40,726 bases of DNA from Candidatus Microgenomates bacterium (GCA_015485895.1 WFSR01000062.1:1-40726), one strand, 5' to 3'. Numbered from the stretch's first letter, positions 2,559 to 37,413 are shown. The notes: generated by a model not told the origin, from the sequence alone. Translations and numbers: made by a program.

Positions 2559-3201
2559 GGGAAAAGAAAAAGTTACTTTAGCAACCAATTCAAAAGCAAA
2601 GAAAAATCACGGTAAACACTATCGCAAGGCAGCCAAATTAGTCAAAAAGGGCCGTTATTACCCTTTAGCCGAGGCTGTTGCTTTAGTTAAAAAAACATCA
2701 ATTTCTCATTTTGTTGGTAATCTTGAAGCTCATTTCGTCGTTCGTCAGGTGGGCAAATTAGGTGAAGTAAGGTTGCCTTTTGCCGGCGGTAAAAAGAAAC
2801 GAGTAGTAATCGCCGACGACAAAGTTGTCGCCGCTATTAAAGCTGGTAAGTTAGACTTTGATATTCTTCTCGCCAATCCAAAAATGATGCCCAAATTATT
2901 GCCCTTCGCCCGTGTCCTTGGCCCGCAAGGGCTGATGCCTAATCCCAAAAATGGAACTCTAACCCCCGATCCGGAAAAAGCCAAAGAGAAATTTAATCAG
3001 GCTGGGTTAACTTTAAAAACTGAAAAGAAAGCTCCCGTTCTGCATTTAATTATTGGTAAATTGGACCAACCGGATAAAGAATTAATTGCCAACCTTGAAG
3101 CAATTATTAATACTTTGGGGAAGAATAATATTCAAAAATTAGTTCTGACAGCAACCATGGGGCCAGGAATTAAAGTAACTGTTAATCAAGAGGCAAAGTA
3201 A
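2551..3201 (+). CDS. rplA: 50S ribosomal protein L1
   Basis: L1-like motifs ([28 protein letters not shown]). GGAGG lies 6 nt upstream of the ATG. Confidence 0.94.
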
Positions 3202-4186
3202 AACCAGTTTTTTTAGCTACCAACCGCCAAGTCTCCTGGGCATGTTTTTTAGCTTTCCGATTACCTTCTTCAAGAATAGCAGCAACCGCTTTTGGCTTTT
3301 TTTGCCAAGCTTGATAACGCTGTTGGAAATCAACCAAAAAGCGCCCCACGACCTGGCTAACAATCTCTTTAAGATGAACAAATTGCAGAGTGCCCTGAAA
3401 ATATTCCTGGCGCATGTTGGCCAGTTGTTCTTTTTCCTGTTTGTTGGCAAAACTTGCGCCAAGCAAGAAAAGGCTAGCTATCTCATCGCCCATTTTTTTC
3501 GGCGGCCGAGTTAAGGTCTCGGTCACCGCCCGACGGATTTTTTGTTGGGCCTGGACAGGACTGTCGTTAAGGAAAATTGCTCCTTGGGGACGGGACTTGC
3601 TCATCTTTCCCTGACCATCGAGAGCCATAATCTTAACTCCCCGGGTATGGTAAGGGTGAGGAATAGAAAAAAGGTGGCCAAAATGACGATTGAATTGACG
3701 AGCTAACAATTGACTAACCTCGAGATGAGCATCCTGGTCTTTGCCAACTGGGATATGAGTAGCCCGCTGAATAAGAATGTCGGCGGCCATTAGGGTAGGA
3801 TAACGAAGTAAAAAAAGAGATGCCCGACGTGGCTGGCGTACCTTTTCTTTTAAGGTAGGCACTCGTAATGCCTGAGCCACAGAAAAGAAACGGGAAAGAA
3901 AAATTTCTAACAATAAAGTTTTTTCGGCCAAAGCAGATTGGTAATAAATAATTGTCTTTTGGGGATCAACGCCGGCAGCCAAGTAAGTAAGGAGAATTTT
4001 CTCCCGATTAGCGGCTACTTTTTGGGGATCCTCAGTAGTAAGGCCATGGAGATCAGCAACAAAAAGAAAAAAAGGGTCGCCTTTCTCTTGAATAGTTAAA
4101 ACATCACGGATAGCACCAAGATAATTGCCCAGATGAAGAGCCTCAGCAGTAGGGCGCAGACCGGTGAGAAAAATATGCTTGGCCAT
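3182..4186 (-). CDS. trpS: tryptophanyl-tRNA synthetase
   Basis: Class I HIGH-type motif (LHLGNYLGAI) and KMSKS motif (GKMSKS). The start is taken at MAKHIFLTGLRPT because the longer ORF (to 4273) runs through a tRNA gene. The 3' end overlaps rplA by 20 nt. Confidence 0.9.
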   Translation of the reverse strand: MAKHIFLTGLRPTAEALHLGNYLGAIRDVLTIQEKGDPFFLFVADLHGLTTEDPQKVAANREKILLTYLAAGVDPQKTIIYYQSALAEKTLLLEIFLSRFFSVAQALRVPTLKEKVRQPRRASLFLLRYPTLMAADILIQRATHIPVGKDQDAHLEVSQLLARQFNRHFGHLFSIPHPYHTRGVKIMALDGQGKMSKSRPQGAIFLNDSPVQAQQKIRRAVTETLTRPPKKMGDEIASLFLLGASFANKQEKEQLANMRQEYFQGTLQFVHLKEIVSQVVGRFLVDFQQRYQAWQKKPKAVAAILEEGNRKAKKHAQETWRLVAKKTGFTLPLD

Positions 4187-4188
4187 AG

Positions 4189-4262
4189 TGGACCCGGTGG
4201 GATTTGAACCCACGATCTCCTCGATGCCATCGAGGCGCTCTAGCCAACTGAGCCACGGGCCC
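4189..4262 (-). tRNA. tRNA-Ala (anticodon GGC)
   Basis: The reverse complement folds as a 74-nt cloverleaf: GGGCCCG/CGGGTCC acceptor with G3:U70, anticodon loop AUGGCAU, GTTCAAATC T-loop and A73. No CCA is encoded. Confidence 0.9.
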
Positions 4263-4273
4263 TTGGGCATCAA

Positions 4274-4282
4274 AGTATCGCA
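4274..4282 (-). promoter_or_regulatory. extended -10 like box (TGcGATACT) 11 nt upstream of tRNA-Ala
   Basis: The minus strand reads TGCGATACT followed by 11 nt before G1 of the tRNA. Confidence 0.4.
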
Positions 4283-4337
4283 AAAATTTACTTAAAAATC
4301 AATGGGGATTGGGGCTAAGAACTAGGTCAAAAAAGCA

Positions 4338-4605
4338 CCAAATCCCAAATCACAAATTCCAATAACCAACCCCCCTTCTGTAGGGGCAGGCAAATCCTAA
4401 TTACCAAAATCCTAATCCGCCAGCTGGCGGACTAAACAAATTCAAATGACCAAAATTCAAATATTCAAAACATTTCTTTTTTCTTTATCTTTATTTTTGC
4501 ATTTTGTTTTGGTCATTTGGTCATTTAAATTTTGAACATTGTCTAGGATTTGGGTCATTAGGATTTAGGATTTGTGTGGGATTTGGAATTTGTGATTTGG
4601 AATTT
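4338..4605. repeat. AT-rich, strand-skewed imperfect palindrome built from degenerate 7-mers (AAATCCN / NGGATTT)
   Basis: The left arm is nearly G-free on the top strand (aaatcccaaatcacaaattcc..., caaattcaaatgaccaaaattcaaat). The right arm is its imperfect reverse complement (ttggtcatttggtcattt..., ggatttggaatttgtgatttgg). Positions 4413-4473 match 40319-40379 at 60 of 61 nt. Confidence 0.85.
4417..4430. repeat. perfect 14-bp GC palindrome CCGCCAGCTGGCGG
   Basis: An identical copy lies at 40323-40336. Variants CCGCCAGTTGGCGG (9459-9472) and CCGCCAACTGGCGG (40710-40723) also occur. Confidence 0.9.
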
Positions 4606-4724
4606 ACCCCAGCTCCGCCGGATGGTGGACATCGGAGTTTTGAATTTGGGTCATTAGAATTTAGAAGTTTAATAGGATAATGGAACGATGATAAGCTATC
4701 ATAGCTGGATGCTTTCAATTGCGC

Positions 4725-4730
4725 TATAAT
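4725..4730 (+). promoter_or_regulatory. -10 box TATAAT 8 nt upstream of the GT4 GTG start
   Basis: The sequence gcgcTATAATcaatcacgGTG shares the context gctataatcaa with the secE promoter. Confidence 0.45.
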
Positions 4731-4738
4731 CAATCACG

Positions 4739-5848
4739 GTGAAGAGACAAAAAGTTGCTCTCGTCCATGATTACCTCGTCACTTTCGGGGGTGCCGAAAG
4801 AGTTCTTCTCGCTCTTCATGAAATCTGGCCCCACGCCCCTGTTTACCTAGCTATTTATAATCCCCAAACTTTAGGTCGCCACTGGCATAAATTCCAGCAC
4901 TGGGATCTTCGCCCCTCCTGGTTCCAAAAACTTCCCTTCGCTAACCGTCTCATCTCCCCTTTCCGCTTTCTCCTTCCTTATATTTGGGAAAGTTTTGACC
5001 TTTCTTCTTATGACCTAGTTATTTCTTCTTCCGCTTGGGCCATGAGCAAAGCCGTTCTCACCCCCTCTACCAGCAAGCACGTTTGCTACTGTCACACTCC
5101 ACCTCGTTTTCTCTACGGTTACCCCGGTGCCCGTCCCTGGCAACATCACAAATTGGTAAAATTATACGCTCACTTCATTAACCACCATCTTCGCATCTAT
5201 GACTACCTCAGCAGTCAACGGGTAGATTATTTCATCGCCAACTCTCAAGAAGTTGCCCGGCGGATCCAAAAATTCTGGCGACGCCAGGCCCAGGTTATTT
5301 ACCCCCCGATTGATATCCCTGCTGTATTACCTTCTTCCCCTAAGCGTAACTTTTATCTTTACGTTAGTCGACTGGTATCTTACAAACATCCCCTCTTGGC
5401 TGCTAAAGCTTGTCACCATCTCCGTCGTCATCTAACTATAGTTGGCCAGGGTCCACTTGAAAAGAAAGTAGCTCACTTTGCTACACAAAGTCCTTATATC
5501 CATTATTTAGGCCATATTTCTGATCAAAGACTTCATCATCTCTACCAACAAGCCAAGGCTCTCATTTTCCCAGCCGAGAGCGAGGATTTAGGTATGGTTC
5601 CTCTCGAAGCAGCCGCCTGGGGAACACCCACCATTGCTTACTATTCTGGTGGCGCTAAAGAAACTGTTCGACCACAAAATACTGGCCTCTTCTTTTCTAA
5701 ACTTACCCAACCATCTCTCATTCATGCTATTCTAAAGTTTGAAAAAAATAATTGGTCAGCCAAAATTTGCTATCAATGGGCCCGCCGGTTTCGAAAAGAG
5801 AACTTCCAAAAAGCTATCCGTCGCTTTGTTGCCCAGCATCGGGCTTAG
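4739..5848 (+). CDS. glycosyltransferase, GT4-like (GT-B fold)
   Basis: 369 aa with a C-terminal EX7E-type region (PAESEDLGMVPLEAAAWGTPTIAY). GTG start. Confidence 0.78.
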   Translation: MKRQKVALVHDYLVTFGGAERVLLALHEIWPHAPVYLAIYNPQTLGRHWHKFQHWDLRPSWFQKLPFANRLISPFRFLLPYIWESFDLSSYDLVISSSAWAMSKAVLTPSTSKHVCYCHTPPRFLYGYPGARPWQHHKLVKLYAHFINHHLRIYDYLSSQRVDYFIANSQEVARRIQKFWRRQAQVIYPPIDIPAVLPSSPKRNFYLYVSRLVSYKHPLLAAKACHHLRRHLTIVGQGPLEKKVAHFATQSPYIHYLGHISDQRLHHLYQQAKALIFPAESEDLGMVPLEAAAWGTPTIAYYSGGAKETVRPQNTGLFFSKLTQPSLIHAILKFEKNNWSAKICYQWARRFRKENFQKAIRRFVAQHRA

Positions 5849-7694
5849 GAGTATGCTGCTCAGGGGATTTTTTAGCCGTTTTCTCCCCTTGCTGCCTTTT
5901 CAAAAGATCGGCTGGGTTGGTAGTAATTAACTTATATTCATCGGGCGAGGCTACCACTCGAATGGCCACATGATTATTACCAGCAAAGAAAATGCCCTCA
6001 CCCACATTAGCGGCTAATAGATATTGCTTTTCTCCCTCAGATAGGTAAAATGTCTTCCCCACTAGGTCAATAGCCGCTGGGTGCTGTTTCAATAAAATTT
6101 GGATGGATGAATTTTTAATAATTGCCGGCCCTTCTCGAGTGCCCAAGAAATCATCTACATCTTGAGTAATCGTAGTCAAACCTAGGTAATACTTACGGGC
6201 CCGTTTGGCGATACCATGAAGGAAAAGAGCCGAGTCAGGGTATTGCATTAAATACCAGGCCTCATCAACAATAAGAATGCGCTTTTTTAGCTGGCCACGA
6301 ATTTTATTCCAAACAAAATCAAGGATAATATGCATAGCAATCGGCCGTAATGCATCTTCTAGATCACGAATTCCAAAGGTAATAAATTTATTATTAAGAT
6401 CAATAGTTGTTTGGCTATTGAAAATACCAGCAAAAGAACCGCGGATAAATCGTTCTAATCGCGCTGCTAAACCGGCCGCCTGAGGCTCTTCCATTCCAAT
6501 CAACACCTTATAAAGATCTTCTATCAACGGCATTTCTTTCCCTTGCTGAGTTGTCGGATCGGGGGTGATACCCCTGTTATGGTAAGTTGTTACCAAGGCT
6601 CGATCTAAAATTGCTTCCTCCTGAGGTGTCATTTTCCCCATAATAATTTTAAAGAGAGCATGTAGGGAGAGGATCTTGCGCCCTAGTTCATTCGCCCCCT
6701 CTTCATCATCTTCTTTAACTAGAGCTAAGTCAAAAGGGTTAATTTTAGCTGGAGAGTTGGCATTAATATCAACATATTGGCCACCGACTGCTTGGGTCAA
6801 CATTTGGTATTCATTCTCGGGATCAATAATTAGAATATCTGTGCCGAACATCAGCGAACGCAGCGCTTCCAATTTGCACAAAAATGACTTGCCAGCGCCA
6901 GCCTTAGCAAAAATTACCGAGTTGTAATTTTCCATAGAAAAACGGTCAAAGATAACCAAGGAACCATTATGCTGATTGATGCCATACATAATCCCGTGGT
7001 CATCGGATAATTCTGAAGAGACAAAAGGGAAAGTTGTTGCCAAGGAAGTGGTATCCATATTGCGGGTGACATTTAGCTTGTCTTGGCAAAGGGGCAATGT
7101 GGTAACAAAGCCCTCTTCCATTTGGAGAGTAGCCGGCTTAGGAATAATCATCAGCCCGCCCAAAGCCCCCTCCAAATCTTTGCTTGCTCGGCGTAATTCT
7201 TCCACGGAATCGGCCGAAAGGGTAATATAAAGCCCCATCTGAAAGAAGCGTTCCGATCCTCGGGCCAACTCCTGTTGTAAGGTAAGGGCATCCTCAAGTT
7301 TAGCTTGGACAGTAGGGTCCACCACTTTCCCCTGTTGGGTAGCTATCGAAATTTCGGCCTCCATTTCAGCAATTTTCCGTTTAAGATTGTCAAGTACTTC
7401 TCTCTCTTCAGACGGATAAATATACATAGCTACCTGAAGAGGTCTATCAAAATTAATAAGCGGGGCTAACCAACTGGGAGAAACATAACGAGGGTAACTA
7501 ATGACATAAAAAGTGCGGTAAAAGCGATTGTTGATCCGGAGATAATTAAAATCTACCTCAATAGCTGCCGGAGCAATAATATCTTTAACCGTAGTTATTC
7601 CAAGATTAAAGTTACGGGCTAAAGGATTGGCCTGATGACCTGATGACGGGACAGCTTTTTTAGCATGGGGCAAGAATCGCTTCAAATTGATCAT
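5814..7694 (-). CDS. VirB4/TraC-like type IV secretion ATPase
   Basis: 626 aa. Walker A FAKAGAGKS at about residue 263, Walker B ILIVDEAW, then GLTTITQDVDDF. The N-domain starts TTVKDIIAPAAIEV. The 3' end overlaps the GT4 gene by 35 nt. Confidence 0.8.
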   Translation of the reverse strand: MINLKRFLPHAKKAVPSSGHQANPLARNFNLGITTVKDIIAPAAIEVDFNYLRINNRFYRTFYVISYPRYVSPSWLAPLINFDRPLQVAMYIYPSEEREVLDNLKRKIAEMEAEISIATQQGKVVDPTVQAKLEDALTLQQELARGSERFFQMGLYITLSADSVEELRRASKDLEGALGGLMIIPKPATLQMEEGFVTTLPLCQDKLNVTRNMDTTSLATTFPFVSSELSDDHGIMYGINQHNGSLVIFDRFSMENYNSVIFAKAGAGKSFLCKLEALRSLMFGTDILIIDPENEYQMLTQAVGGQYVDINANSPAKINPFDLALVKEDDEEGANELGRKILSLHALFKIIMGKMTPQEEAILDRALVTTYHNRGITPDPTTQQGKEMPLIEDLYKVLIGMEEPQAAGLAARLERFIRGSFAGIFNSQTTIDLNNKFITFGIRDLEDALRPIAMHIILDFVWNKIRGQLKKRILIVDEAWYLMQYPDSALFLHGIAKRARKYYLGLTTITQDVDDFLGTREGPAIIKNSSIQILLKQHPAAIDLVGKTFYLSEGEKQYLLAANVGEGIFFAGNNHVAIRVVASPDEYKLITTNPADLLKRQQGEKTAKKSPEQHTPKPDAGQQSDG

Positions 7695-8395
7695 TTCTTA
7701 CGTAGAGTAACCGGAGAAACAAAATCAGCCAGCCCAAAATTTTTAATTCCCGGCGCTTCTTCATTATATATCTGATAAAAAAGGTTTATCAGCTGACGAG
7801 TGCCCAGTTGGTGAATACGCAAACCAAGGCGGCCGAAGGAATGAATAAGCTGATCTCTCTTCGGCTCAAGGTTCGCTTTTGCCCGTTGAATTAAAGTTTC
7901 TCTAGGTAAAGGAAGGGCTGCTTTCTGAGACTGGTGGGTAAAAGAAAAAATACTCGCAAAACCTGCTTTAGCCGACTGGATACCTAGCTCAAAAACAGAA
8001 AATGGAATAACTACATAAAAAGCTTTTGTTAATACATCATTACGCTGAACAAGATCATCAACAAATTTTTTATAACTAATGATTAATTTTTTAATCTGGG
8101 GAGTTTTTTGGCGCTGCTCTTGCATTTGAAGAAGCTTAAGATAGCTGCCAATATTTTTCAAACTGGAACGAATTAAAATTTGAATCGGGAAATTCAAAGA
8201 ATTAAGGAGAGAACCATAGGCATAAATCATGGCCTCTTGCTCCTTTTCAGAAAGAAGATCAAAATTCACAGCTGGCGTCTCTAGAATATAAACTGCTGAA
8301 CCATCTTTAAGGATAACCATATCCTCAGCAATATCTGCAATTAGAAGATGATCTTGGGTGGTTCCCCGGATAGCTATTTGTTTAATGTCCGCCAT
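7691..8395 (-). CDS. hypothetical protein, co-operonic with the VirB4-like ATPase (possible VirB4 N-domain paralogue)
   Basis: 234 aa. Its stop overlaps the VirB4-like start by 4 nt. By eye it has the same pattern as the N-domain of the downstream ATPase (TTQDHLLIADIAEDMVILKDGS... versus TTVKDIIAPAAIEVDFNYLRINN...). No NTPase motifs. Confidence 0.6.
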   Translation of the reverse strand: MADIKQIAIRGTTQDHLLIADIAEDMVILKDGSAVYILETPAVNFDLLSEKEQEAMIYAYGSLLNSLNFPIQILIRSSLKNIGSYLKLLQMQEQRQKTPQIKKLIISYKKFVDDLVQRNDVLTKAFYVVIPFSVFELGIQSAKAGFASIFSFTHQSQKAALPLPRETLIQRAKANLEPKRDQLIHSFGRLGLRIHQLGTRQLINLFYQIYNEEAPGIKNFGLADFVSPVTLRKK

Positions 8396-8404
8396 AATTG
8401 CAAA

Positions 8405-9250
8405 TCAATTTTTAATTGCCTTAGCCACAATTTTTAACGGGGCGATAATTTGACCGTTAACATTTATTTTCATTATATCAAACTGATAAGGCTCTTTTTC
8501 AGTAATAACCAAATAGTTACCTTTAGCCAGGGGAGTAGCAGTTTGGAACTGACCCAAACCATTGGTGCGCATTGCTCGAACTGGATTCCCTTCGGCATCC
8601 TGAATTTCCACAATTGCTCCCTCTACAGTATCACCTTCGCTGTCGACCACCAAACCACTAACAATATTTGGTTGTGTAGGAGTAGCCGGCAGTTTCTGAT
8701 TAACAAATTGTGCTGGAGTTGTATCCTGACGTTTCTTAGTCTCCCAAAGTTGTGATAATTCCTGCCAATTCGGTTCGTTCGCCTTCACACCAGTTGAGGT
8801 AGTAGTTAGTGCCGCCCTTTGGGCCGGAGGCGGTGGCTTACGCTGGGGAAGAGAAGCTAAAAATTCCCGGGCTGCCTGGGCTTGTCCCCCAACGGCAACT
8901 TTTTGAAAAAAACGAGCCCGATGTGCCTGTTGAGCTAAGAGATCCAGATCAACTGCCGCCGGCATCTTTTTCCAAAGAAATATTGTAGGTGAATAAACAC
9001 GCCGCAGAAAGATAAGAAACCAAACCTCAAGAGGGCGACCGTTGACAGGAGCAAAAGCTAAAGCTGCAGCGATAACCAGGGGTAAAAGCGTTAAGAAAAA
9101 GCGTAAAGAAACAGGGAGATGAGAAGTATAAAAAATACCGGCGATAATAACGCCAGCTGCCATTTTAGCGAATTGTTTGAGAGTCATATTACCCACAAGA
9201 CGAAACTCATACGAAGAAATCTCTTGTGGTATTTGATGCTGTCCTAACAT
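8405..9250 (-). CDS. PrgI/VirB3-like membrane protein with a C-terminal beta-sandwich (CarboxypepD_reg-like) domain
   Basis: N-terminus (IPQEISSYEFRLVGNMTLKQFAKMAAGVIIAG) plus two TM helices matches the PrgI-family layout. A Pro/Gln/Thr-rich linker follows, then GLVVDSEGDTVEGAIVEIQDAEGNPVRAMRTNGLGQFQ..LAKGNYLV. Confidence 0.6.
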   Translation of the reverse strand: MLGQHQIPQEISSYEFRLVGNMTLKQFAKMAAGVIIAGIFYTSHLPVSLRFFLTLLPLVIAAALAFAPVNGRPLEVWFLIFLRRVYSPTIFLWKKMPAAVDLDLLAQQAHRARFFQKVAVGGQAQAAREFLASLPQRKPPPPAQRAALTTTSTGVKANEPNWQELSQLWETKKRQDTTPAQFVNQKLPATPTQPNIVSGLVVDSEGDTVEGAIVEIQDAEGNPVRAMRTNGLGQFQTATPLAKGNYLVITEKEPYQFDIMKINVNGQIIAPLKIVAKAIKN

Positions 9251-10520: not shown

Positions 10521-11036
10521 ATGGCACAGAAAAACAACTCAGGTCATCAGCAAGGGGGGCAAAATCAGGTTTCTTTTGAAACCTTAGCTAAACAGCAAAT
10601 CTCAAGAGAACAACAGCGTTTGGAAATTCTTCGCCGGATAGCTTTCTTGCACCAAAAAGAAGCTGTTGAAAAAAAGCCCAGCTACAATCTTCTCTATAAT
10701 GGTAGTGAACGGCAAACAAAAGAAGAAATAATTGCTTTACGTCAGGAAATAAAAAAGCTCGCCAAAAAGGTTGTCCATATCCAAGCTAATGTCGACCGTG
10801 CCGTTAACCAAAGGGCTAGTCGGCCAAGCCATTACGAGTTAAGCTTTTGGCAACATCTTCATCGCTGGGTGCGCCAGCTGGTAGAAAAAGCTGACAAGGT
10901 AGATATTTGGTTACAAGAATGGAATCAACGCCGGCGCAAAAAAGGTGATTTTTGGGGAATCGTTAGCAACAAGAAGCGTGGCGGCGCTCAGTTTCTTCTT
11001 TCATCTGAACATTATATGGCGCGATCAGCAGGCTAA
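10521..11036 (+). CDS. hypothetical protein (basic, coiled-coil-like)
   Basis: 171-aa ORF filling the tig-thrS gap on the same strand. No recognisable motifs. Confidence 0.6.
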   Translation: MAQKNNSGHQQGGQNQVSFETLAKQQISREQQRLEILRRIAFLHQKEAVEKKPSYNLLYNGSERQTKEEIIALRQEIKKLAKKVVHIQANVDRAVNQRASRPSHYELSFWQHLHRWVRQLVEKADKVDIWLQEWNQRRRKKGDFWGIVSNKKRGGAQFLLSSEHYMARSAG

Positions 11037-16979: not shown

Positions 16980-18590
16980 ATGGAAAATTGGTCGCCAAAA
17001 GAAAAAAAGATTTTGCAAAAATACTTTACAAACACGCAGGCAAATGTTTTTGGTCTGGTTAACCTTCCCGAGGTAATTAAAGGAACTCTCTTTTCTCGTT
17101 ACTCCCGATCGGGTAAAAATTTGCGTCGCTTATTTTTAGACGAATTCTGGCAGCAAGACCAACTACGGCAAATACTTCCCCAAAGGAACAATTATGAAAA
17201 TCTCAACATCAGTCGGGCCGAAAACTTCTACGAACGGGTTCTAATTGGTTACGGTGATGATTCAGTTGCCGAATTGGGTGGAGCCCATATAGCCCTAGAA
17301 AATATTAGTGTTTTAGCTACCAAATCTTTCGAGGAGCATCGCCTTGGCCTTTCGTTTTTAGAGAAATCAACCCGCTATGTTTATTTCGACCAACGGGATA
17401 AAAATGGCCACTATCGTTATTATCGGCCGCCGAAAATCATTAGGTCGCCCTTTGCTCACCTTTATCAGCAAACCGCTGATAATCTTTTTGACACTTATAG
17501 CCATTTAGTCCATGAGCTTCAACCAGCTCTTCGACGTCTTTTTCCTGGCGACGAGAATGATCCTGCTTATCGTTTTTCCATTAGAGCTAAAGCCTGTGAT
17601 TTAGCGCGCCCCCTTTTGCCTCTAGCTACTCTCACCAATATGGGCATTTACGGGAATGGTCGTGCTTTTGAATATCTCATCACCACTCTTTTAGCCTCAC
17701 CGCTTGGCGAAGTTCGTTTATTTACTCAAGCAATAAATAAAGAATTACGGAAAATTATCCCCGCTTTTGTCAAACGGGCTACAAATGAAAAAGGCCAACA
17801 ATATCGCCAATATTTGCAAAAACGGCAACAACGACTGACGCGCTGGCAGCACCAATGGCAAACCAAATCACCTACAGGCAAGGTAGCTGTTCAGTTGGTC
17901 AATTTTGACCATCAAGCCGAGGAAAAAGTGCTTCGGGCTATAGCTTATCCCTGGTCTAATCTTCCAATGCATCAGCTTAAAAGGAAAATTAGCCAAATGA
18001 AGCCAGCTGATCGTCAACGTCTTTTCCACGATTATCTGGCCGACCGCCAAAATCGCTTCCATAAGCCAGGCCGAGCCCTTGAAGAAGCTTATTTCGCTTT
18101 CGAAATCAGCGCTGACTGGGGGGTATATAAAGATCTAATGCGCCACCGAATCCTTAGCCGCTATCACCAAATTTTCAGTAACCAATATGGCTATCGCATC
18201 CCTCCTTATCTCCGCCCAGCTGGTTTACTTGCTCCTTACCGTCGAGCAATGGATCAGGCCCAAGAAGTTCAGGTTAAAATTGCTAAAGAAATGCCTGTAG
18301 TCAGCCAATATCTCGTTACTCACGGTGCTATAAATCATTTCTATATCCGCCTCAATCTCCGCGAGGCGGTGCACTTAGTGGAGCTTCGCAGTCAACGCCA
18401 GGGGCATCCTTGGTATCGTCAGGTTGCCCAAGAAATTGGCCGGCAAATTACCGCTAAATTGCCTCTTTTGGGAAAATATATTTTCCCTTTCTTGGATAAC
18501 CATGATTATAATTTGGAACGATTGGCCGCTTTCCGCAAAGTAATGAAAAAAGCAAGAAATAAAAATATTGTTCCCTTTCCAGAAAATTAA
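16980..18590 (+). CDS. thyX: FAD-dependent thymidylate synthase, long form
   Basis: ThyX motif RHRILS within DLMRHRILSRYHQ. 536 aa, about twice the minimal ThyX size, with a degenerate motif-like segment (LFSRYSRS) in the N-terminal half. Confidence 0.78.
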   Translation: MENWSPKEKKILQKYFTNTQANVFGLVNLPEVIKGTLFSRYSRSGKNLRRLFLDEFWQQDQLRQILPQRNNYENLNISRAENFYERVLIGYGDDSVAELGGAHIALENISVLATKSFEEHRLGLSFLEKSTRYVYFDQRDKNGHYRYYRPPKIIRSPFAHLYQQTADNLFDTYSHLVHELQPALRRLFPGDENDPAYRFSIRAKACDLARPLLPLATLTNMGIYGNGRAFEYLITTLLASPLGEVRLFTQAINKELRKIIPAFVKRATNEKGQQYRQYLQKRQQRLTRWQHQWQTKSPTGKVAVQLVNFDHQAEEKVLRAIAYPWSNLPMHQLKRKISQMKPADRQRLFHDYLADRQNRFHKPGRALEEAYFAFEISADWGVYKDLMRHRILSRYHQIFSNQYGYRIPPYLRPAGLLAPYRRAMDQAQEVQVKIAKEMPVVSQYLVTHGAINHFYIRLNLREAVHLVELRSQRQGHPWYRQVAQEIGRQITAKLPLLGKYIFPFLDNHDYNLERLAAFRKVMKKARNKNIVPFPEN

Positions 18591-28127: not shown

Positions 28128-28910
28128 TCAAAAAGGATTTTGCCTTCTTACTTCTTGTTTATGTAATGTTTGTTCTAAAGCTTGCACTTTTTCAAAAAGC
28201 GTTTGAGAATGATCAGCAAATGTTCCCAATGATTGGACTGTTTTCATTTCCAAAGGCGAAAGCACAAAAGCCCTAGTCGTCAACCTACCATTTTTGGGGA
28301 GATGCAGCTCGCCCGCAAAATACATCAACAATCTGAGTTGAACATTTACCAAAGAAGGCACAGTATCACCTTGCCGGTGAACCGCCAGACGAGAAATACT
28401 TATCAGGGGCAACCCTTCCTCCAGAGAACGCAAAAATGCTCCTAATTCCTCTTCAGGACCAATCGTATCGAGTTCCACCATTACCGTCTCAGTACCAGAT
28501 CTTTTATGCTGTTTCCGTTGCCCCGCTGCCGACGCCACTTTAACTGCCCCTAAATCGAAGCTTAACTTCTTTACCATAAAATGGTGGCGCTGGGCCGGTT
28601 CCTCCAACGCAAACAATATTAACTGCAAATCACTTTTTTCCGGAAAAGCCTTTTCTGTCAATTGCGCTCGCTGTTTCACTTTTTCCCAATCCCAATTCGT
28701 CAAGATGACTTTTTCTTGCTTTTCCCGTAATAATTCCTGACGCAATTGCCACCAAAGACGCCCCCGCCGGTAAACATGCAACCACCCTTGCCACAAGAAT
28801 CCTCCGCCAATAAAAACCGTTAGCCAAAAAAGGGCAAGGGAGAAAATCGCCTGCCGGGCAACTTTATTTTGCCAAAGCTGTTGGTCTAGAATCAACCATC
28901 CCAGACGCAT
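28128..28910 (-). CDS. PilO-like type IV pilus assembly membrane protein (tentative)
   Basis: A single N-terminal TM helix, a coiled-coil stretch and a C-terminal alpha/beta region. It is the last gene of the pilM-pilN-X operon. Confidence 0.5.
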   Translation of the reverse strand: MRLGWLILDQQLWQNKVARQAIFSLALFWLTVFIGGGFLWQGWLHVYRRGRLWWQLRQELLREKQEKVILTNWDWEKVKQRAQLTEKAFPEKSDLQLILFALEEPAQRHHFMVKKLSFDLGAVKVASAAGQRKQHKRSGTETVMVELDTIGPEEELGAFLRSLEEGLPLISISRLAVHRQGDTVPSLVNVQLRLLMYFAGELHLPKNGRLTTRAFVLSPLEMKTVQSLGTFADHSQTLFEKVQALEQTLHKQEVRRQNPF

Positions 28911-28912
28911 TT

Positions 28913-29455
28913 CTATAAATGAATTAATAAACTAAAACGCATGTTGCCGGGAGCCATTTGGATCGCTTGCACTGTTACCACCGAAAATTGGTCGTTAGGA
29001 AGCCAACGACGATAATGACGAGTGCGGCGGTCAAAATCTGCCCACGCCGACAGAGAACGCCAGTGTCCTTGGATAGCCAATTTATCGCCACGGTATATTA
29101 CTTCATCTAGAACTGCCCCTGGGCCAAGGAATTCTTTCACCTGCTGCAATCGCCTGCTTATTATTTGCCTCTTTCTCAGAACGCTGGCCGCTAATTTTAT
29201 CTTTCCTCGGGCCCTCAATTGTGCTCGCAAATAAGGCAAAAAGGCTCTCAAATCTTCCTTTATAGTCGTCCGTTCGGCAGCAAGCAGTTTTACCCGACGC
29301 TGTAACTGCCAACGAGCCAAAAGAATAAGCAGACCGTTAACGATCAAAAAAATAGCTAGCCATTTAAGATCTCGTTGCCAGCGCCGGATCATTCGCCAAT
29401 ATTGCCAATTAATTTTTGTCCTTGTCGGCAATAAGTTTATTGTTTCTACTTCCAT
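28913..29455 (-). CDS. pilN: PilN-like type IV pilus assembly protein
   Basis: N-terminal INLLP motif (ETINLLPTR) followed by one TM helix. Overlaps pilM by 10 nt. Confidence 0.7.
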   Translation of the reverse strand: MEVETINLLPTRTKINWQYWRMIRRWQRDLKWLAIFLIVNGLLILLARWQLQRRVKLLAAERTTIKEDLRAFLPYLRAQLRARGKIKLAASVLRKRQIISRRLQQVKEFLGPGAVLDEVIYRGDKLAIQGHWRSLSAWADFDRRTRHYRRWLPNDQFSVVTVQAIQMAPGNMRFSLLIHL

Positions 29456-30456
29456 AAACGGAGGGCTGAGCCAATAACACCGCTAAACTCTAATTTCTTC
29501 TCTTCCCAATGCTGCTGACTTGCCAAACTAGGATTTAGAGTAAGACCGGCCAGAGGATCTCCCCATTGCACTTCAACACCTAACTCGCTCACTAATTCAT
29601 CCGCCAGCCCGGGCACTAATGATCCTTTGCCAGAGAGTGTTAAGACTTTTACTTTTTGTTTCCAAACCCCTTCAAAGGCCAAAATGCTCTTGCGGGTTTC
29701 CACTACCAATTGTTGAACCACCGGCAACAAAGCTTGGCGAATTTTATTTTTCCACTGGCCAGCTTTCAGCCCATAAGTAGTTTTATACGCCTCTGCTTTT
29801 TCGAGCGACATACCTAAAACTACACTCACCGCACGGGTAAGGGTATCACCCCCTAATGAGGAAAAATGGCTTAGATAAGGCGCCCTTTGATAGCTTATAA
29901 CCACCGTTGTCTGCATAGCGCCAATATCAACAATAGCAGTGGCCGTCGTTGGTTCGGTGGCAAAGACACGAGTTAAGGCAATACTGTAATTTTCTATTGC
30001 CAAGGGGACCAAACGCAAATTAGTAAGTAGATCAATCAAAGCATCAAGGTAACTCTTTTGAGTAGCTACCACCAGAATCGTCTTACCCTTATCTTTCCGA
30101 TCTTGCAAAACTTGATAATCCATCTGGGCCTTAGTTACCGGATAGGGGATAAACGTTTCTGCTTCATAATGCAAAGCCGAAGCTATTTCCGCATCCTTCA
30201 TCGGAGGAAGATTAACCACCCGGCTAATTACCACCTCCTCGGGGATATTGACCACCACCCGGGGATAATTCTTTCCAATTGTGGTCAGAGCTTTTGCTGC
30301 TGCCGCGGGTAAATTACTCAATGTCAGGGGTGAGGTCGCCGCTGAACCTAAGCCTCGATATTCTTGTAGAATTGCCAACTCTAGTTTGTCATTTTTCTTT
30401 TCTACAGCCGCTAGCTGTACCGCTTCACCGCTTAGGCGCAGAGCAAAATAGTTCAT
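29446..30456 (-). CDS. pilM: PilM, actin-like type IV pilus assembly ATPase-fold protein
   Basis: 336 aa with an actin/HSP70-like layout (VDIGAMQTTVVIS, GGDTLT, LSGKGSLVPGLADEL). Sits upstream of pilN. Confidence 0.8.
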   Translation of the reverse strand: MNYFALRLSGEAVQLAAVEKKNDKLELAILQEYRGLGSAATSPLTLSNLPAAAAKALTTIGKNYPRVVVNIPEEVVISRVVNLPPMKDAEIASALHYEAETFIPYPVTKAQMDYQVLQDRKDKGKTILVVATQKSYLDALIDLLTNLRLVPLAIENYSIALTRVFATEPTTATAIVDIGAMQTTVVISYQRAPYLSHFSSLGGDTLTRAVSVVLGMSLEKAEAYKTTYGLKAGQWKNKIRQALLPVVQQLVVETRKSILAFEGVWKQKVKVLTLSGKGSLVPGLADELVSELGVEVQWGDPLAGLTLNPSLASQQHWEEKKLEFSGVIGSALRLWK

Positions 30457-30465
30457 TCTCCTTTC

Positions 30466-30471
30466 AGTATA
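30466..30471 (-). promoter_or_regulatory. -10 like box TATACT 9 nt upstream of the pilM ATG
   Basis: The minus strand reads ctttTATACTgaaaggagaATG. Confidence 0.4.
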
Positions 30472-30637
30472 AAGAGAGGGGCAAGAAAAATCAATTTAGG
30501 CTTAACTTTTCACTACATTGGCAATTAAAAACCCAAAGCCTGGCCCCTAAAGCTAGGAAATAGCTGAAAGGGGCTAAAAAACTAAGGGCGAAAAGATGAC
30601 CTGCCATCCATATCTTTGTCAAGTTGAGTTTGGCTCA

Positions 30638-30680
30638 CCCTGCCCCGATCTTACGTCGGAGTGAAAATCAGGATGACGCG
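30638..30680. repeat. degenerate copy of the GACGTnACGTC / TCAGGATGACG module
   Basis: ccctgccccgatcttacgtcggagtgaaaatcaggatgacgcg. Confidence 0.6.
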
Positions 30681-30687
30681 TTATTGG

Positions 30688-30823
30688 CCTAATTCCTAGT
30701 TCCATTTACTTCTCACATTAATTCTTCTTTCCTAATAAAAGCTTTAGGCTTTGGGCTTTCAGCTTTTAGCAGCCCTTTAGGACTTTTGCTTTTTCCTAGT
30801 TCCTAGTTCCTAGTTCCTAGCTC
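30688..30823 (+). repeat. ~135-bp heptamer-rich module shared with 40469-40607
   Basis: cctagttccatttact..., aaagctttaggctttgggctttcagcttttagcagccctttagg, then CTAGTTC x3 plus CTAGCTC (30796-30823). Confidence 0.85.
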
Positions 30824-30901
30824 CATTTCCACTTCAACTTCTCTAAGTATCAGATACTAAAGATTTTGAATTTGGAAAATTGGCAAATTCGGACTTATTA
30901 T

Positions 30902-31411
30902 CTAAATTCGTTCCTGAAACAACTTAGTTACCTGGAATATTGCCTCTTTCTTTCCGGGAACAATTTGCAAAGTATTTGCGTTATTGTTAGCAATAGAAAA
31001 GGTAAAAGCAATGTCCACTTGAGGATAAGCCTCTGAAGTAACTTTGCAAGTGGCTGCCAATCTATCGCAGTGCACCCCCTCAGGGCTGAGATAGGCTGAA
31101 TTGGAAGCTAAATGACCATTCCGACAACTAAAGGTAGTGATACCACCATCGTAGCCTAAAAAGGCAATGCTAGAAGCGTCACTAACCGGGCAGGCCAAGG
31201 GGCGATGGGCAAAACGGTTAAGGTAATCTTCCATTGCCAGAGCAGCAGCGCTACCAGCTTGGCGTAATTCTTTACTGGCTAAAGCTTTATCCTGCCCCCG
31301 CAAATTAAAATAAAAAATTGTTGCCCCAATCGAAACAATAACTGCCAGCAGCCCGGTCACCAAAAGACTCTCAAAAAGACTAAAACCTTGCTGTTGCAAT
31401 TTACCGCCCAT
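30902..31411 (-). CDS. prepilin-type minor pilin/pseudopilin
   Basis: Class III signal: MGGKLQQQG|FSLFESLLVTGLLAVIV. Confidence 0.65.
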   Translation of the reverse strand: MGGKLQQQGFSLFESLLVTGLLAVIVSIGATIFYFNLRGQDKALASKELRQAGSAAALAMEDYLNRFAHRPLACPVSDASSIAFLGYDGGITTFSCRNGHLASNSAYLSPEGVHCDRLAATCKVTSEAYPQVDIAFTFSIANNNANTLQIVPGKKEAIFQVTKLFQERI

Positions 31412-31820
31412 TGGTAATTACCGTTTTCAAAACAATAATCGTCCTCGTTCCCCGTAAAACTTTTATAGCTACCGCCGCCCTTTTGTCAGTGTCTCCTAAC
31501 GAACAATCACTAAAACAATCCTGGCAAGAAAAAATATTGCTCCCGTCACAATCAGTTGCCAAACAGCTACCTGTTTGGCAATAAATATTGATCCTCTGCC
31601 ACCAGTCATTGTCAAAACGGTTAGCTTGCAACTCCGACAATTGCCGCTTGGCGACTTGAAGGGCGGCTGTGCGTTGCTGAGCGAACCGAGTTGCTGCCAA
31701 CATAAAGGTCGTCCCCGCCGCTAACCCCGAAAGGAGCAGAGCACTAATCGAAAGAATAAACACCAACTCAACCAAAGTCTGCCCTTTTTTATTATTGTCG
31801 CTATTTTTCGTCATTGACAA
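31401..31820 (-). CDS. prepilin-type minor pilin, Cys-rich
   Basis: NNKKG|QTLVELVFILSISALLL. The C-terminal part has 7 Cys (YCQTGSCLATDCDGSNIFSCQDCFSDC). Confidence 0.6.
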   Translation of the reverse strand: MSMTKNSDNNKKGQTLVELVFILSISALLLSGLAAGTTFMLAATRFAQQRTAALQVAKRQLSELQANRFDNDWWQRINIYCQTGSCLATDCDGSNIFSCQDCFSDCSLGDTDKRAAVAIKVLRGTRTIIVLKTVITNGR

Positions 31821-32302
31821 GAATTAAGGCTTATCGTGCCATTACGGTACATACTAATTTGCCGGCAACGGCTGATTGTCCTTATTTGGAAAAAGGCAGG
31901 GTTGCTGCTCACTCCACTCAAAGCACCGCTCAATGGCAGCCAATTGAAATGATTATTATCATCACCATCAACTAAGTTAATTGCCACCTTTTTCTTTTGC
32001 CAATCACCATTGTAAGTTTGCCATGGTTGTTGCCAGTTGTCGCACACTTGGCGGGCTCTAAGGCTGTAATCAGCTGGCGACCACCAAACTTCGTACCGTA
32101 GCAGAGTTTGGCAATTTTGGCGGTCTTTCACTCCATTACGAGCTTGGCTTCGGAGAAGGGCTAATTGTGAATAGAGACTATTAGCAGCTAAATTAACCGC
32201 CCGTTGTTGATAAAATAGACGATAACCGGCAAAACTTATTCCCGCCACCAAGCTCATAATTGCTGCCGAGACCAAAAGTTCAATTAACGTCAAGCCTTTC
32301 AT
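31811..32302 (-). CDS. prepilin-type minor pilin
   Basis: MKG|LTLIELLVSAAIMSLVAG. An internal start is chosen because the longer ORF overlaps the upstream pilin gene. Confidence 0.65.
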   Translation of the reverse strand: MKGLTLIELLVSAAIMSLVAGISFAGYRLFYQQRAVNLAANSLYSQLALLRSQARNGVKDRQNCQTLLRYEVWWSPADYSLRARQVCDNWQQPWQTYNGDWQKKKVAINLVDGDDNNHFNWLPLSGALSGVSSNPAFFQIRTISRCRQISMYRNGTISLNSCQ

Positions 32303-32303
32303 T

Positions 32304-32735
32304 TTACGGCGGTGAGAGGTGGTAATTGCAAATTGCCCCTCCGCAACTAGGGTGACCGGGACAGCCGTTACGGTCATTGCTAGATTCCAGTGCAGCACAA
32401 AGAGTATAGTCAGTTCCATTACTGGAATGATAATAATAATGCCATCCTTTAGGATCTTGGGGAAATTCATGCATATAAGTAGTCCCGTTGCACACCCACG
32501 CCCCAGATGAAGGCGGTAAGCACGCCTGGCAACTACCACCATCGTAATAAGGATAACAGCCAATATCATTGCGGATCATTTCCAAAACTGAACGGATTTG
32601 ACTGAGATCAGCTTCTCGCTTGTCATCTCTAGCTTTTTTCCCGGCTGCCTGATATGACACCATCGCCGCCGATGAAAGGAGAATTATGATGGTAGTTACT
32701 ACCAAGAGTTCGATAAAAGTAAACCCTTTCTTCAC
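32304..32735 (-). CDS. GspG/PilA-like prepilin paralogue
   Basis: MKKG|FTFIELLVVTTIIILL, then KKARDDKREADLSQIRSVLEMI. Cys-rich C-terminus. Confidence 0.75.
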   Translation of the reverse strand: MKKGFTFIELLVVTTIIILLSSAAMVSYQAAGKKARDDKREADLSQIRSVLEMIRNDIGCYPYYDGGSCQACLPPSSGAWVCNGTTYMHEFPQDPKGWHYYYHSSNGTDYTLCAALESSNDRNGCPGHPSCGGAICNYHLSPP

Positions 32736-33136
32736 TGAAGGTTACTCAAACAAAAGTAATCACCGCTACCATAATGGCAACCGGCAGCCGTCCCTGTATC
32801 CTGGGCATTCCCCCCGCCAGTTTCTAAATGGCCACAGATACAATAACTATTGTCAGCGCATTGCCAAGAATAACTTTGGCCCGGCTTAGGGTCGCTTGGT
32901 AATCCGCCCGGCAAATAAGTATCACCAGGATTGCAACCGGCAGGGTATTTGTTATTAACCGCCCGATATTGTTCAATGGCTTTTTGGACTGCCTTAATAT
33001 CCTGCCGCCGGGTAGCGTCACGGGCCCGTTTTTGGGCCGAAGCATAAGAAGTAGAAACCACCGCTACCAAGGCAGCAATAATCGAAATTACCACCAATAA
33101 CTCAAAAAGGGTAAAGCCAAAATTTTTCCTTTTCAT
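32732..33136 (-). CDS. GspG/PilA-like prepilin paralogue
   Basis: MKRKNFG|FTLFELLVVISIIAALV, then QKRARDATRRQDIKAVQKAIEQY. An internal start is chosen. Confidence 0.75.
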   Translation of the reverse strand: MKRKNFGFTLFELLVVISIIAALVAVVSTSYASAQKRARDATRRQDIKAVQKAIEQYRAVNNKYPAGCNPGDTYLPGGLPSDPKPGQSYSWQCADNSYCICGHLETGGGNAQDTGTAAGCHYGSGDYFCLSNLQ

Positions 33137-33137
33137 T

Positions 33138-33581
33138 TTATTCACTACATACATAATAACAATTTTGCGAGCAATTTGCATGGCAAATATCATCTGGGCA
33201 ACGCTGGCTAGAATTGTTAATATCAATATCACCGCCATTCTCCAACTCTGCCCAAAGCCGAAAACCATCCCTGTCACTACTAACGCAATAGCCATAATGA
33301 TGGTCGCCACCCAAGGGGTCGTCGGGGACGTGCACCATATAGGTTGTCTTCCCTTCTTGCCAACGATTACCGAAAGGGGGAGCTCCAGTCGGATAAGCCT
33401 GGTGATCGTTATAATAAAGGCGTAGGCTATTTTTAACCTGCCAGAGATCTTGCTTCCGCTGGCCATCTCGGGCCCGTTGGCGAGCCGACATCAAATTTGG
33501 CAAAAGCAACCCTGTTAAGATAGCAATAATTGAAAGAACTACCAAAAGCTCAATAAGAGTAAAACCTGATTTTTCTTTCAT
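33138..33581 (-). CDS. GspG/PilA-like prepilin paralogue
   Basis: MKEKSG|FTLIELLVVLSIIAILTG, then RQRARDGQRKQDLWQVKNSLRLYYNDH. Confidence 0.75.
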   Translation of the reverse strand: MKEKSGFTLIELLVVLSIIAILTGLLLPNLMSARQRARDGQRKQDLWQVKNSLRLYYNDHQAYPTGAPPFGNRWQEGKTTYMVHVPDDPLGGDHHYGYCVSSDRDGFRLWAELENGGDIDINNSSQRCPDDICHANCSQNCYYVCSE

Positions 33582-34084
33582 TGGATGCGGACATTGGAAC
33601 TAGCAACACCAAAATTAAACACCTTGTCGTGACAGCGATAGCCTGCAGTATTGAATTTATTATAGTCGGGATCACGGGTATTTTCCAAGACAGAAAACAA
33701 TTTGAAGTAAGTCCCATCAGATTGATAGCAATAATCTAAACCGTGGCTAGGATCTTGGGGCAAGCGCTTCATATAAACTATAGTAGTATTATTAATTGTT
33801 TCCTTGAAAGCATCGCCCCAATTTAAAACAGATAGCTGAGGACAATGACGACTAACGATAATCTTGCCCGTTTCCTGACCGGCACAATCAACACTCAGGG
33901 GATAAGAACGGTGATCGTTATAATACATCTCTAGAGCACGGGCAATGTTGCTGAGATCCGCTTTCCGTTGAGCATCACGGGCCTTTTGCTGACTGGTATG
34001 ATACTGGCCAAATCCCACACCGGCTAAAATGGCTAAAATTGCCATTACTACCAACAATTCTACCAAAGTGAATCCTTGTCTCAT
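33578..34084 (-). CDS. GspG/PilA-like prepilin paralogue
   Basis: MRQG|FTLVELLVVMAILAILAG, then QKARDAQRKADLSNIARALEMYYNDH. An internal start is chosen. Confidence 0.75.
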   Translation of the reverse strand: MRQGFTLVELLVVMAILAILAGVGFGQYHTSQQKARDAQRKADLSNIARALEMYYNDHRSYPLSVDCAGQETGKIIVSRHCPQLSVLNWGDAFKETINNTTIVYMKRLPQDPSHGLDYCYQSDGTYFKLFSVLENTRDPDYNKFNTAGYRCHDKVFNFGVASSNVRIQ

Positions 34085-34085
34085 T

Positions 34086-34796
34086 TTATTGACCGCAACT
34101 AACATCATAGCAACATTCTGTTCCCTCACTATTACATCTATACTCTACACCAGGACAACAAGTGGAGCAAGTATTAGGAAGGCAATAACGGCTCCCTTCT
34201 TCACCACATGTTGCCGGATAACAACCCGACGGGGAAGTGGGAGCTGGCGTCGGTGTCGGCGTTAATTCTACCAAAGGCGAGGTTGGCGACGGAGTTACGC
34301 TAGGCGCCGGCGAACCGATTGCACTACCCACCTGTTCGGGGGGAGTAATATTAGGGCTTGCCACCCCCAATGTATACCGCCGACCATCAATCTGACAACC
34401 TTGGTGGCAATAATCTCCTTTTCGGGGATAAAACAAATTCGTATAGATAGAGAACCAACTAGGACAGCTATCGTCTTCTACAATAATTTTATATGGTTGA
34501 TGACTTCGAGGATCACAGGGCACAGAATTCAGCCAGGGGCGAAAATCGTGGCTATCGCAATGCTGTAATTTGAGCAAATCTTCACCCTGAGGATAACAGC
34601 CATTGTCATTATAATAATCCTCCATCGCCCTTTGGAGCTCATATAAATCACGACGCCGACGGCCATCGTTAGCCTTGCGAATTTGAGCCAGATAATTCAT
34701 CAAAAAAGTTGTTGCCAGCACTACCACGATAGTCATTACAATCACCAACTCCACTAAAGTCAAGCCCGCTGATTTCTTTGTAGCAAATGTTCCCAT
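34086..34796 (-). CDS. prepilin with a Pro/Thr-rich linker and a C-terminal Cys-rich knob
   Basis: KKSAG|LTLVELVIVMTIVVVLA, then IRKANDGRRRRDLYELQRAMEDYYNDN. A linker SPAPSVTPSPTSPLVELTPTPTPAPTSPSG. 10 Cys in the last ~45 aa. The ATG overlaps the pilD stop (TGATG); an alternative ATG is at 34802. Confidence 0.7.
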   Translation of the reverse strand: MGTFATKKSAGLTLVELVIVMTIVVVLATTFLMNYLAQIRKANDGRRRRDLYELQRAMEDYYNDNGCYPQGEDLLKLQHCDSHDFRPWLNSVPCDPRSHQPYKIIVEDDSCPSWFSIYTNLFYPRKGDYCHQGCQIDGRRYTLGVASPNITPPEQVGSAIGSPAPSVTPSPTSPLVELTPTPTPAPTSPSGCYPATCGEEGSRYCLPNTCSTCCPGVEYRCNSEGTECCYDVSCGQ

Positions 34797-35533: not shown

Positions 35534-35536
35534 CTT

Positions 35537-36193: not shown

Positions 36194-36209
36194 TTCTTCA
36201 CCCCCTTTC

Positions 36210-37412: not shown

Positions 37413-37413
37413 C

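Follow-up and report, generated by a model that had tools for sequence, protein, structure and literature searches.

VirB4, the ATPase of type IV secretion systems (T4SS), was previously found in 2,417 of 3,035 genomes of Patescibacteria (the candidate phyla radiation, CPR), and almost all of these proteins belong to one monophyletic clade nested in MPF_FATA (Quinonero-Coronel et al. 2025, PMC12102498). According to that study, TrsD is the most abundant accessory component, with 1,664 trsD genes adjoining virB4; VirB3/PrgI is common; and arrays of VirB2-like pilins are abundant, notably in Microgenomatia and Saccharimonadia. Genes for proteins resembling the type IV coupling protein (T4CP) are mostly distant from virB4, and relaxases are nearly absent. 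The authors concluded that the system is chromosomal and was co-opted for a non-conjugative purpose. In Microgenomatia, VirB6 was reported to be scarce and VirB3 to be rarely linked to virB4. A 2025 FEMS review (PMC12857230), reporting on the transposon sequencing of Wang et al. (2023), describes a T4SS cluster and pilin array that Southlakia epibionticum needs to grow on its host, an effect independent of ComEC; such a requirement has been demonstrated in this species only. In the present study, we analyzed a contig of 40,726 nucleotides from a Microgenomatia genome (GCA_015485895.1, WFSR01000062.1:1-40726; hereafter the window), which carries a three-gene operon encoding a PrgI/VirB3-like protein, a TrsD-type protein, and a VirB4 ATPase.

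The host genome is a metagenome-assembled genome of Candidatus Shapirobacteria (class Microgenomatia, Patescibacteria). The assembly comprises 696,737 bp in 76 contigs and is estimated to be 90.6% complete; the window corresponds to contig C62 in its entirety. The operon showed every tested feature of the T4SS of the Patescibacteria clade (VirB4, TrsD, VirB3, a chromosomal location, pilins, and no relaxase). With the described members of this clade, including Ca. Southlakia epibionticum ML1, it shares a linked core of VirB3/PrgI, TrsD, and MPF_FATA-type VirB4, a chromosomal position among housekeeping genes, the presence of VirB2-like pilin arrays, and the lack of a detectable relaxase. A T4CP-like ATPase gene far from virB4 and a peptidoglycan hydrolase in place of VirB1 are also common to both. 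We are confident that the three genes specify the core that energises a chromosomal, vertically inherited, MPF_FATA-derived Patescibacteria T4SS at the cytoplasmic membrane. The locus represents an already known system, ordinary for its lineage, and not a new kind. The original prediction, made from the nucleotide sequence, had described a stand-alone T4SS-type module that might be a reduced motor for secretion or uptake. We retain its view of a T4SS-derived, chromosomal, and probably non-conjugative module that is not an integrative conjugative element (ICE), but not the autonomy or the novelty that it attributed to the three proteins.

The VirB4 ATPase, TrsD, and PrgI

The ATPase scored 401 bits against NCBIfam NF045971 (VirB4-like conjugal transfer ATPase, CD1110 family), for which the curated equivalog cut-off is 325. 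It also matched the TraG P-loop family PF19044 (3.8e-28) and the VirB4 C-terminal domain in PDB entry 4AG5 (4.7e-54), and both Walker motifs were intact. These results bear out the VirB4/TraC-like ATPase of the original prediction. The closest plasmid homologues were VirB4/TraE proteins of Bacillota and Actinomycetota (32-38% identity). Secondary Pfam matches to the DUF87/HerA central domain (1.1e-6, 29 bits) and AAA_10 might suggest a DNA pump of the FtsK/HerA type with no relation to T4SS. However, all of the best matches were to VirB4 families, one of them above its equivalog cut-off, the best PDB match was a VirB4, and the family scores place the protein outside the FtsK/HerA clade. Furthermore, the gene neighbours are prgI and trsD, and the genome has its own ordinary FtsK (C49:3411-5537), which was the only other large P-loop match. 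We rejected an FtsK/HerA identity, the chance of which appears to be close to nil. An identity as an archaeal Ced equivalog was similarly rejected because the scores for CedB (30.5 bits, 1.5e-7; cut-off 700) and CedD (23.3 bits, 2.3e-5; cut-off 600) were far below the cut-offs.

The VirB4 proteins of most Shapirobacteria relatives carry a disordered C-terminal tail of 150-400 amino acids (aa) that is rich in Pro, Glu, and Lys and ends in M[DT]Y[DE]KLFG. The open reading frames (ORFs) with this tail encode 750-1070 aa (e.g., in the related loci L021, L024, L026, L044, L053, L054, and L077). The VirB4 of the window and those of its closest relatives (606-626 aa) do not have the tail.

The middle protein of 234 aa had been regarded as unknown. 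It is of the TrsD type, namely, the N-terminal domain of VirB4 detached as a separate gene. It matched NCBIfam NF041427 (TrsD/TraD) at 5e-11; the score of 42.8 bits falls short of the subfamily cut-off (200), as a distant relative would be expected to do. It also matched N-terminal positions of the VirB4 models NF045975 (112-233) and NF045971 (31-136). The ATPase aligned only with positions 185-751 of the 752 in NF045971. Because the two proteins cover separate parts of the VirB4 models, trsD and virB4 jointly make up one VirB4 in two pieces. An AlphaFold model of TrsD, for which an alignment of 71 TrsD sequences (A1) served as input, had a mean predicted local distance difference test (pLDDT) score of 79. 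Its 12 best PDB fold matches were all R388 T4SS entries that contain TrwK/VirB4, and the top three had a probability of 1.00, an E-value of 7e-3, and a TM-score of 0.43. The A1 profile had no match among PDB sequences; in the PDB, fold comparison alone tied TrsD to VirB4.

The same layout occurs in the pGO1/pSK41-type MPF_FATA operon (TrsC-TrsD-TrsE) and in plasmids of the Bacillus cereus group, where a small membrane protein, TrsD (~216-234 aa), and VirB4 (~620 aa) follow one another in this order, with a 4-nt overlap. In the B. cereus plasmid AP023017, ORFs of 142 and 216 aa precede traE (617 aa, 4-nt overlap), which is followed by an endopeptidase gene. The 216-aa ORF is TrsD-like (3.5e-19) and aligned with A1 at an hhalign probability of 98%. 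Therefore, the split of VirB4 is an inherited trait of the pGO1/pSK41-type branch of MPF_FATA and not a frameshift. A cell-wall hydrolase gene after virB4 is another feature of both the plasmids and CPR relatives. In contrast to the operon of the window, which belongs to a core chromosomal gene set in a genome with VirB2-like pilins and no detected relaxase, the pGO1/pSK41-type systems reside on plasmids and are linked to conjugation. Their VirB3-like protein is also short (142 aa in AP023017, ~120-140 aa in plasmid systems) in comparison with the 281 aa found here. The R388 Trw and Agrobacterium VirB systems (PDB 7O41 and 8RTB) likewise combine a VirB3 hairpin with a VirB4 ATPase, and their TrwK/VirB4 chains can be superposed with the TrsD model. 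However, VirB4 in these diderm systems is a single polypeptide of ~820 aa, an outer-membrane core is present, and similarity to the ATPase of the window is marginal (E ~5e-4).

The first protein of the operon matched the PrgI family PF12666 over aa 6-87 (38.5 bits, cut-off 27) and has two hydrophobic helices, in agreement with the PrgI-like protein with two transmembrane (TM) segments of the original prediction. In the AlphaFold model, the N-terminal PrgI domain contains a hydrophobic two-helix hairpin at ~aa 28-70, followed by an amphipathic helix. A linker of ~100 aa that is rich in Pro and Gln and has low model confidence then leads to a C-terminal beta-sandwich of the transthyretin/CnaB/CarboxypepD_reg type (~aa 197-280). 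The TM helices and sandwich had pLDDT scores >90, and the sandwich alone >95. The sandwich region matched CarboxypepD_reg-like PF13620 (4.3e-7, aa 197-255), and Foldseek retrieved 3E8V, CnaB2 (8BDW), and the regulatory domain of carboxypeptidase D, each with a probability of 1.0. The combination of PF12666 and PF13620 was present in most of the 120 homologues listed out of 317 matches, and also in L071. Hydropathy analysis revealed two hydrophobic segments only, with a charge of +5/-1 in the stretch after the second. From the two-helix hairpin and this charge, the positive-inside rule predicts that the tail and sandwich are cytoplasmic. A term search of PMC12102498 found no mention of CarboxypepD, PF13620, or carboxypeptidase. 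The conserved sandwich on PrgI may be an undescribed, minor detail of the system.

The coordinates of the operon and of candidate partner genes are listed in Table 1. The three ORFs are real and are located exactly where the original prediction had placed them, with the same gap and overlap. Through the ATGA overlap, trsD and virB4 are translationally coupled. That prediction also included a leaderless-type promoter specific to the operon. A TGcTAAACT motif upstream of prgI has a geometry that fits a candidate promoter of this type, and inspection of the sequence identified no Shine-Dalgarno sequence directly 5' of the PrgI start codon. However, this is a sequence pattern only, and a consensus promoter scan did not list the motif because it has no accompanying -35 match.

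Table 1. Positions of the operon features in the window and of candidate partner genes on other contigs (C numbers) of the same assembly
Feature	Position	Strand	Size	Remarks
prgI/virB3-like gene	8405-9250	minus	281 aa
prgI-trsD gap	8396-8404		9 nt
trsD-type gene	7691-8395	minus	234 aa
trsD-virB4 overlap	7691-7694		4 nt	ATGA
virB4 ATPase gene	5814-7694	minus	626 aa
Walker A, AKAGAGKS	6885-6908			aa 263-270, intact
Walker B, ILIVDEAW	6255-6278			aa 473-480, intact
Candidate extended -10-like motif, TGcTAAACT	9266-9258	minus		7 nt 5' of PrgI ATG, read from sequence
VirB2-like pilin array	C28:125-1579		four genes	PF18895
VirB2-like pilin array	C60:18123-18955		two genes	PF18895
VirB6-like polytopic protein	C39:3037-4659		540 aa	candidate
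VirB6-like polytopic protein	C53:96-1748		550 aa	candidate
Soluble T4CP-like ATPase	C50:536-2674		712 aa	DUF87, TrwB_AAD_bind, TraG-D_C
CHAP-domain protein	C23		935 aa	TM segment, C-terminal CHAP

Conservation and chromosomal setting

A scan of species-representative genomes identified 362 loci that encode a relative. The named loci among the best 80 of these 362 were mostly from Candidatus Shapirobacteria, with identities of 61-93%. The order PrgI-TrsD-VirB4 was maintained, with short gaps or overlaps, at all 69 loci in which the three genes were callable. This differs from the general description of Microgenomatia in PMC12102498, in which VirB3 is seldom linked to virB4. Of the 121 genomes sampled from the order, 116 contained TrsD, usually in one copy. 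The count was 74 of 76 among high-quality genomes and 42 of 44 by genus. In a comparison of the triad with its closest relative, L011, pN (nonsynonymous differences per site) was 0.06-0.09 and pS (synonymous differences per site) was 0.76-0.88. Synonymous sites are saturated even at this distance, such that dN/dS is not computable and the two values are given instead. Because pN is far below the saturated pS, the comparison indicates that the triad is under strong purifying selection. Based on the conserved order, the near-universal presence of TrsD, and purifying selection, the operon is a core, vertically inherited chromosomal gene set and not the remnant of a mobile element.

The genes flanking the operon are housekeeping genes, as originally proposed. 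On the virB4 side, the 3' end of virB4 overlaps a convergent gene for a GT4 glycosyltransferase by 35 nt, and this is followed by tRNA-Ala, trpS, the genes for L1 and L11, and nusG. On the PrgI side are tig (trigger factor), DUF5660, thrS, infC, and the genes for L20 and a class A penicillin-binding protein. Pfam scans covered most of the other large ORFs on the contig, while those at ~34-40 kb were unscanned. In the ORFs scanned, we found no VirB6, VirD4, relaxase, or integrase, and no complete T4SS or ICE adjoins the operon. GC content is uniform across the window without a deviation at the operon block, and a search of its two flanking spacers did not reveal direct or inverted repeats bracketing the block. 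The absence of an integrase and of an attachment-site (att)-like boundary, as originally stated, was thereby supported. We rejected the status of an ICE or genomic island on the same grounds.

Outside CPR, conjugative plasmids of Bacillota and Actinomycetota carry the nearest homologues, which are also arranged as TrsD-TraE, and the tRNA-Ala gene is 1.5 kb from the virB4 stop codon. These two observations would be compatible with an integrated conjugative element of which a remnant is decaying, or with a mobile module acquired recently. However, the three ORFs are intact, the catalytic motifs are retained, and the triad is under strong purifying selection. The gene set is near-universal and mostly single-copy in the order with its synteny preserved, its GC content is native, and neither an integrase (in the ORFs scanned) nor flanking repeats were detected. 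A remnant or recent acquisition is highly improbable.

Several other features of the window and its relatives were noted. In the related contig L010 (83% VirB4 identity), the PrgI end of the block adjoins trpS; in the window and L011, the virB4/GT4 end faces trpS. The block (window 3182-9250) appears to be inverted between these close relatives. Between tig and thrS, the gene for the DUF5660 protein (171 aa, 10521-11036) follows the stop codon of tig at a distance of 12 nt. The two Thy1 (ThyX) stretches in an ORF of 536 aa at 16980-18590 suggest that a flavin-dependent thymidylate synthase was duplicated in tandem and fused. A type IV pilus cluster is located at 28128-40217 on the minus strand, ~19 kb from virB4. 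Its Pfam matches comprise PilM, a T2SSM_b/PilO-like protein, and several N_methyl prepilins; ORFs of 400, 362, and 572 aa in the cluster would fit PilC, PilT, and PilB, as judged from their lengths and not from a Pfam scan.

Candidate partner genes on other contigs

Genes that may encode the remaining components were found on other contigs (Table 1). Six VirB2-like pilin genes (PF18895, T4SS_pilin) form two arrays, and four of the six scored above the cut-off. Two polytopic proteins encoded on C39 and C53 are paralogues with 37% identity. Homologues of these proteins are encoded 2-4 kb upstream of PrgI-TrsD-VirB4 in L049, L060, L071, and L089; in L071 and L093, they immediately follow arrays of VirB2-like pilins. 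Pfam identified no domain in the two proteins or in their convergent neighbours of ~950 aa, and the profile of the VirB6-like alignment (A3) had no match among PDB sequences. Mainly on the basis of synteny, we consider them to be reasonable, somewhat favoured candidates for VirB6. The original prediction had noted the lack of a VirB6-like channel and had recommended a search of the genome; VirB6-like candidates were recovered, and the searches for VirD4 and four relaxase families were negative. A divergent VirB6-like family defined by synteny may fill the VirB6 gap reported for Microgenomatia, which would also be an undescribed, minor detail.

The two contigs with these genes have a common structure. 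In each of C39 (4693 bp) and C53 (4784 bp), the VirB6-like gene is convergent with a gene for a Glu/Lys-rich protein of ~954 aa. The VirB6-like proteins have the identical N-terminus MLYGCDKLRKMKRI. The first ~30 residues of the large proteins are also identical, yet their bodies are only 24-37% identical. The pair may represent paralogous cassettes whose 5' ends are conserved; alternatively, divergent alleles of different strains may have broken the assembly here.

The T4CP-like ATPase on C50 and its counterpart in L093 (701-3037) have no obvious N-terminal TM segment and share the DUF8128/DUF87/TrwB_AAD_bind architecture. In L093, this gene is ~4 kb upstream of the pilin array and the VirB6-like gene. 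PF02534, the classical VirD4 family, had no match in the 90.6%-complete genome. Relaxase families PF03432, PF01076, PF08751, and PF02486 were all negative in the same genome; MOBC-type and other relaxases were not searched for. We rejected a conjugative MPF_FATA element of the pGO1/pSK41 or pCF10 type based on the lack of matches to the four relaxase families and to PF02534, the soluble nature of the T4CP-like protein, and the absence of a mobile context.

The wall-hydrolase role in T4SS is usually filled by VirB1, PrgK, or YddH. Giant proteins are encoded directly downstream of virB4 in L071 (9764-12463, 899 aa) and L089 (9856-13581, 1241 aa). They end in M23 or CHAP peptidoglycan-hydrolase domains, and the remainder of each has no Pfam match. 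The CHAP-domain protein of C23 is likely their counterpart in the present genome.

The dispersal of these genes bears on the proposal that the three proteins are a self-sufficient, reduced motor without other T4SS components. The description of the module as stand-alone is accurate in that no other T4SS gene was found in the scanned part of the contig, and the triad alone is invariably linked across relatives. However, the same genome encodes pilins, VirB6-like candidates, a T4CP-like ATPase, and a CHAP-domain protein elsewhere. In some relatives, genes of these kinds are located beside virB4, contiguous with the triad, which weighs against a stand-alone motor. Moreover, none of the three proteins is a channel-forming polytopic subunit. 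A motor of only these three proteins is very unlikely. Saccharimonadia cluster their pilin, VirB6-like, hydrolase, and T4CP-like genes; in contrast, all of these are unlinked from virB4 in the present genome.

Proposed function and meaning

We propose that the operon energises a VirB2-type pilus or channel with six pilins, two VirB6-like proteins, a soluble TrwB/TraG-like ATPase, and a CHAP-domain protein, which would serve in epibiotic interactions with a host rather than in plasmid conjugation. By analogy with the R388 structures 7O41 and 8RTB, PrgI/VirB3 would form a helical hairpin in the membrane that docks the VirB4 N-terminal domain, in this case TrsD. TrsD would bind the ATPase of 626 aa and supply in trans the N-terminal domain that a full-length VirB4 has in cis. 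The ATPase may then oligomerise into a ring, and ATP hydrolysis would power the assembly of VirB2-like pilins and the passage of substrates via the VirB6-like channel, after the CHAP-domain protein has opened the cell wall locally. The present data show the protein identities, the split of VirB4, its conservation under purifying selection, the dispersal of the partner genes, and the lack of four relaxase families; the physical assembly of the machine, pilus biogenesis, the substrate, and the direction of transport are inferred.

Several points weigh against this interpretation. The system in the present genome is known from genes alone, the partner genes are unlinked to virB4, and their co-function is deduced from synteny in relatives. 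The fold match of TrsD is modest in both TM-score and E-value, though coherent. The VirB6-like proteins have weak sequence ties to a known family; the genome's own copy matched TrbL at E=0.33, and TrbL matches were present in 2 of 52 family members scanned singly (best E 0.0097). Membership of the ATPase in the monophyletic Patescibacteria VirB4 clade is suggested by taxonomy and best matches. A relaxase or a classical VirD4 could also be located in the missing ~9% of this fragmented assembly of 76 contigs.

The same machine may instead import host nucleic acids or other macromolecules into a nucleotide-auxotrophic epibiont, by analogy with Ced and without the secretion of effectors. According to PMC12857230, nucleotide synthesis is lacking in CPR genomes. 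A 2026 preprint (10.64898/2026.06.21.733656) reported feeding on host RNA in another cultivated relative, together with tubular structures at the parasite-host interface that are possibly T4SS pili. The lack of a detectable relaxase and the weak matches of the ATPase to CedB and CedD also fit import. However, the CedB score reflects generic P-loop similarity, and the sequence carries no sign of the direction of transport. This alternative concerns function only, is compatible with the structural identification of the operon, and appears unlikely to us.

A bolder possibility combines two of the details described above. PrgI of Shapirobacteria and neighbouring Microgenomatia/WWE3 would have gained its tethered sandwich as a new part of the T4SS, e.g., a substrate receptor or gate, and at the same time the polytopic family of ~500-550 aa would be the "missing" VirB6 of Microgenomatia. 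The sandwich could, for example, substitute for the absent membrane-anchored coupling protein. We regard this combination as doubtful.

We favour the energising core of a Patescibacteria T4SS as the identity of the operon. No new principle emerges from the locus, which extends the examples of the published VirB3-TrsD-VirB4 core by one from Shapirobacteria. The present results offer small gains, namely, a system that is fully dispersed in this lineage, the beta-sandwich of PrgI, and a VirB6-like family that possibly fills the gap in Microgenomatia. For this very large, uncultured radiation, the Patescibacteria T4SS is among the few machines on which epibiotic life has been shown to depend.

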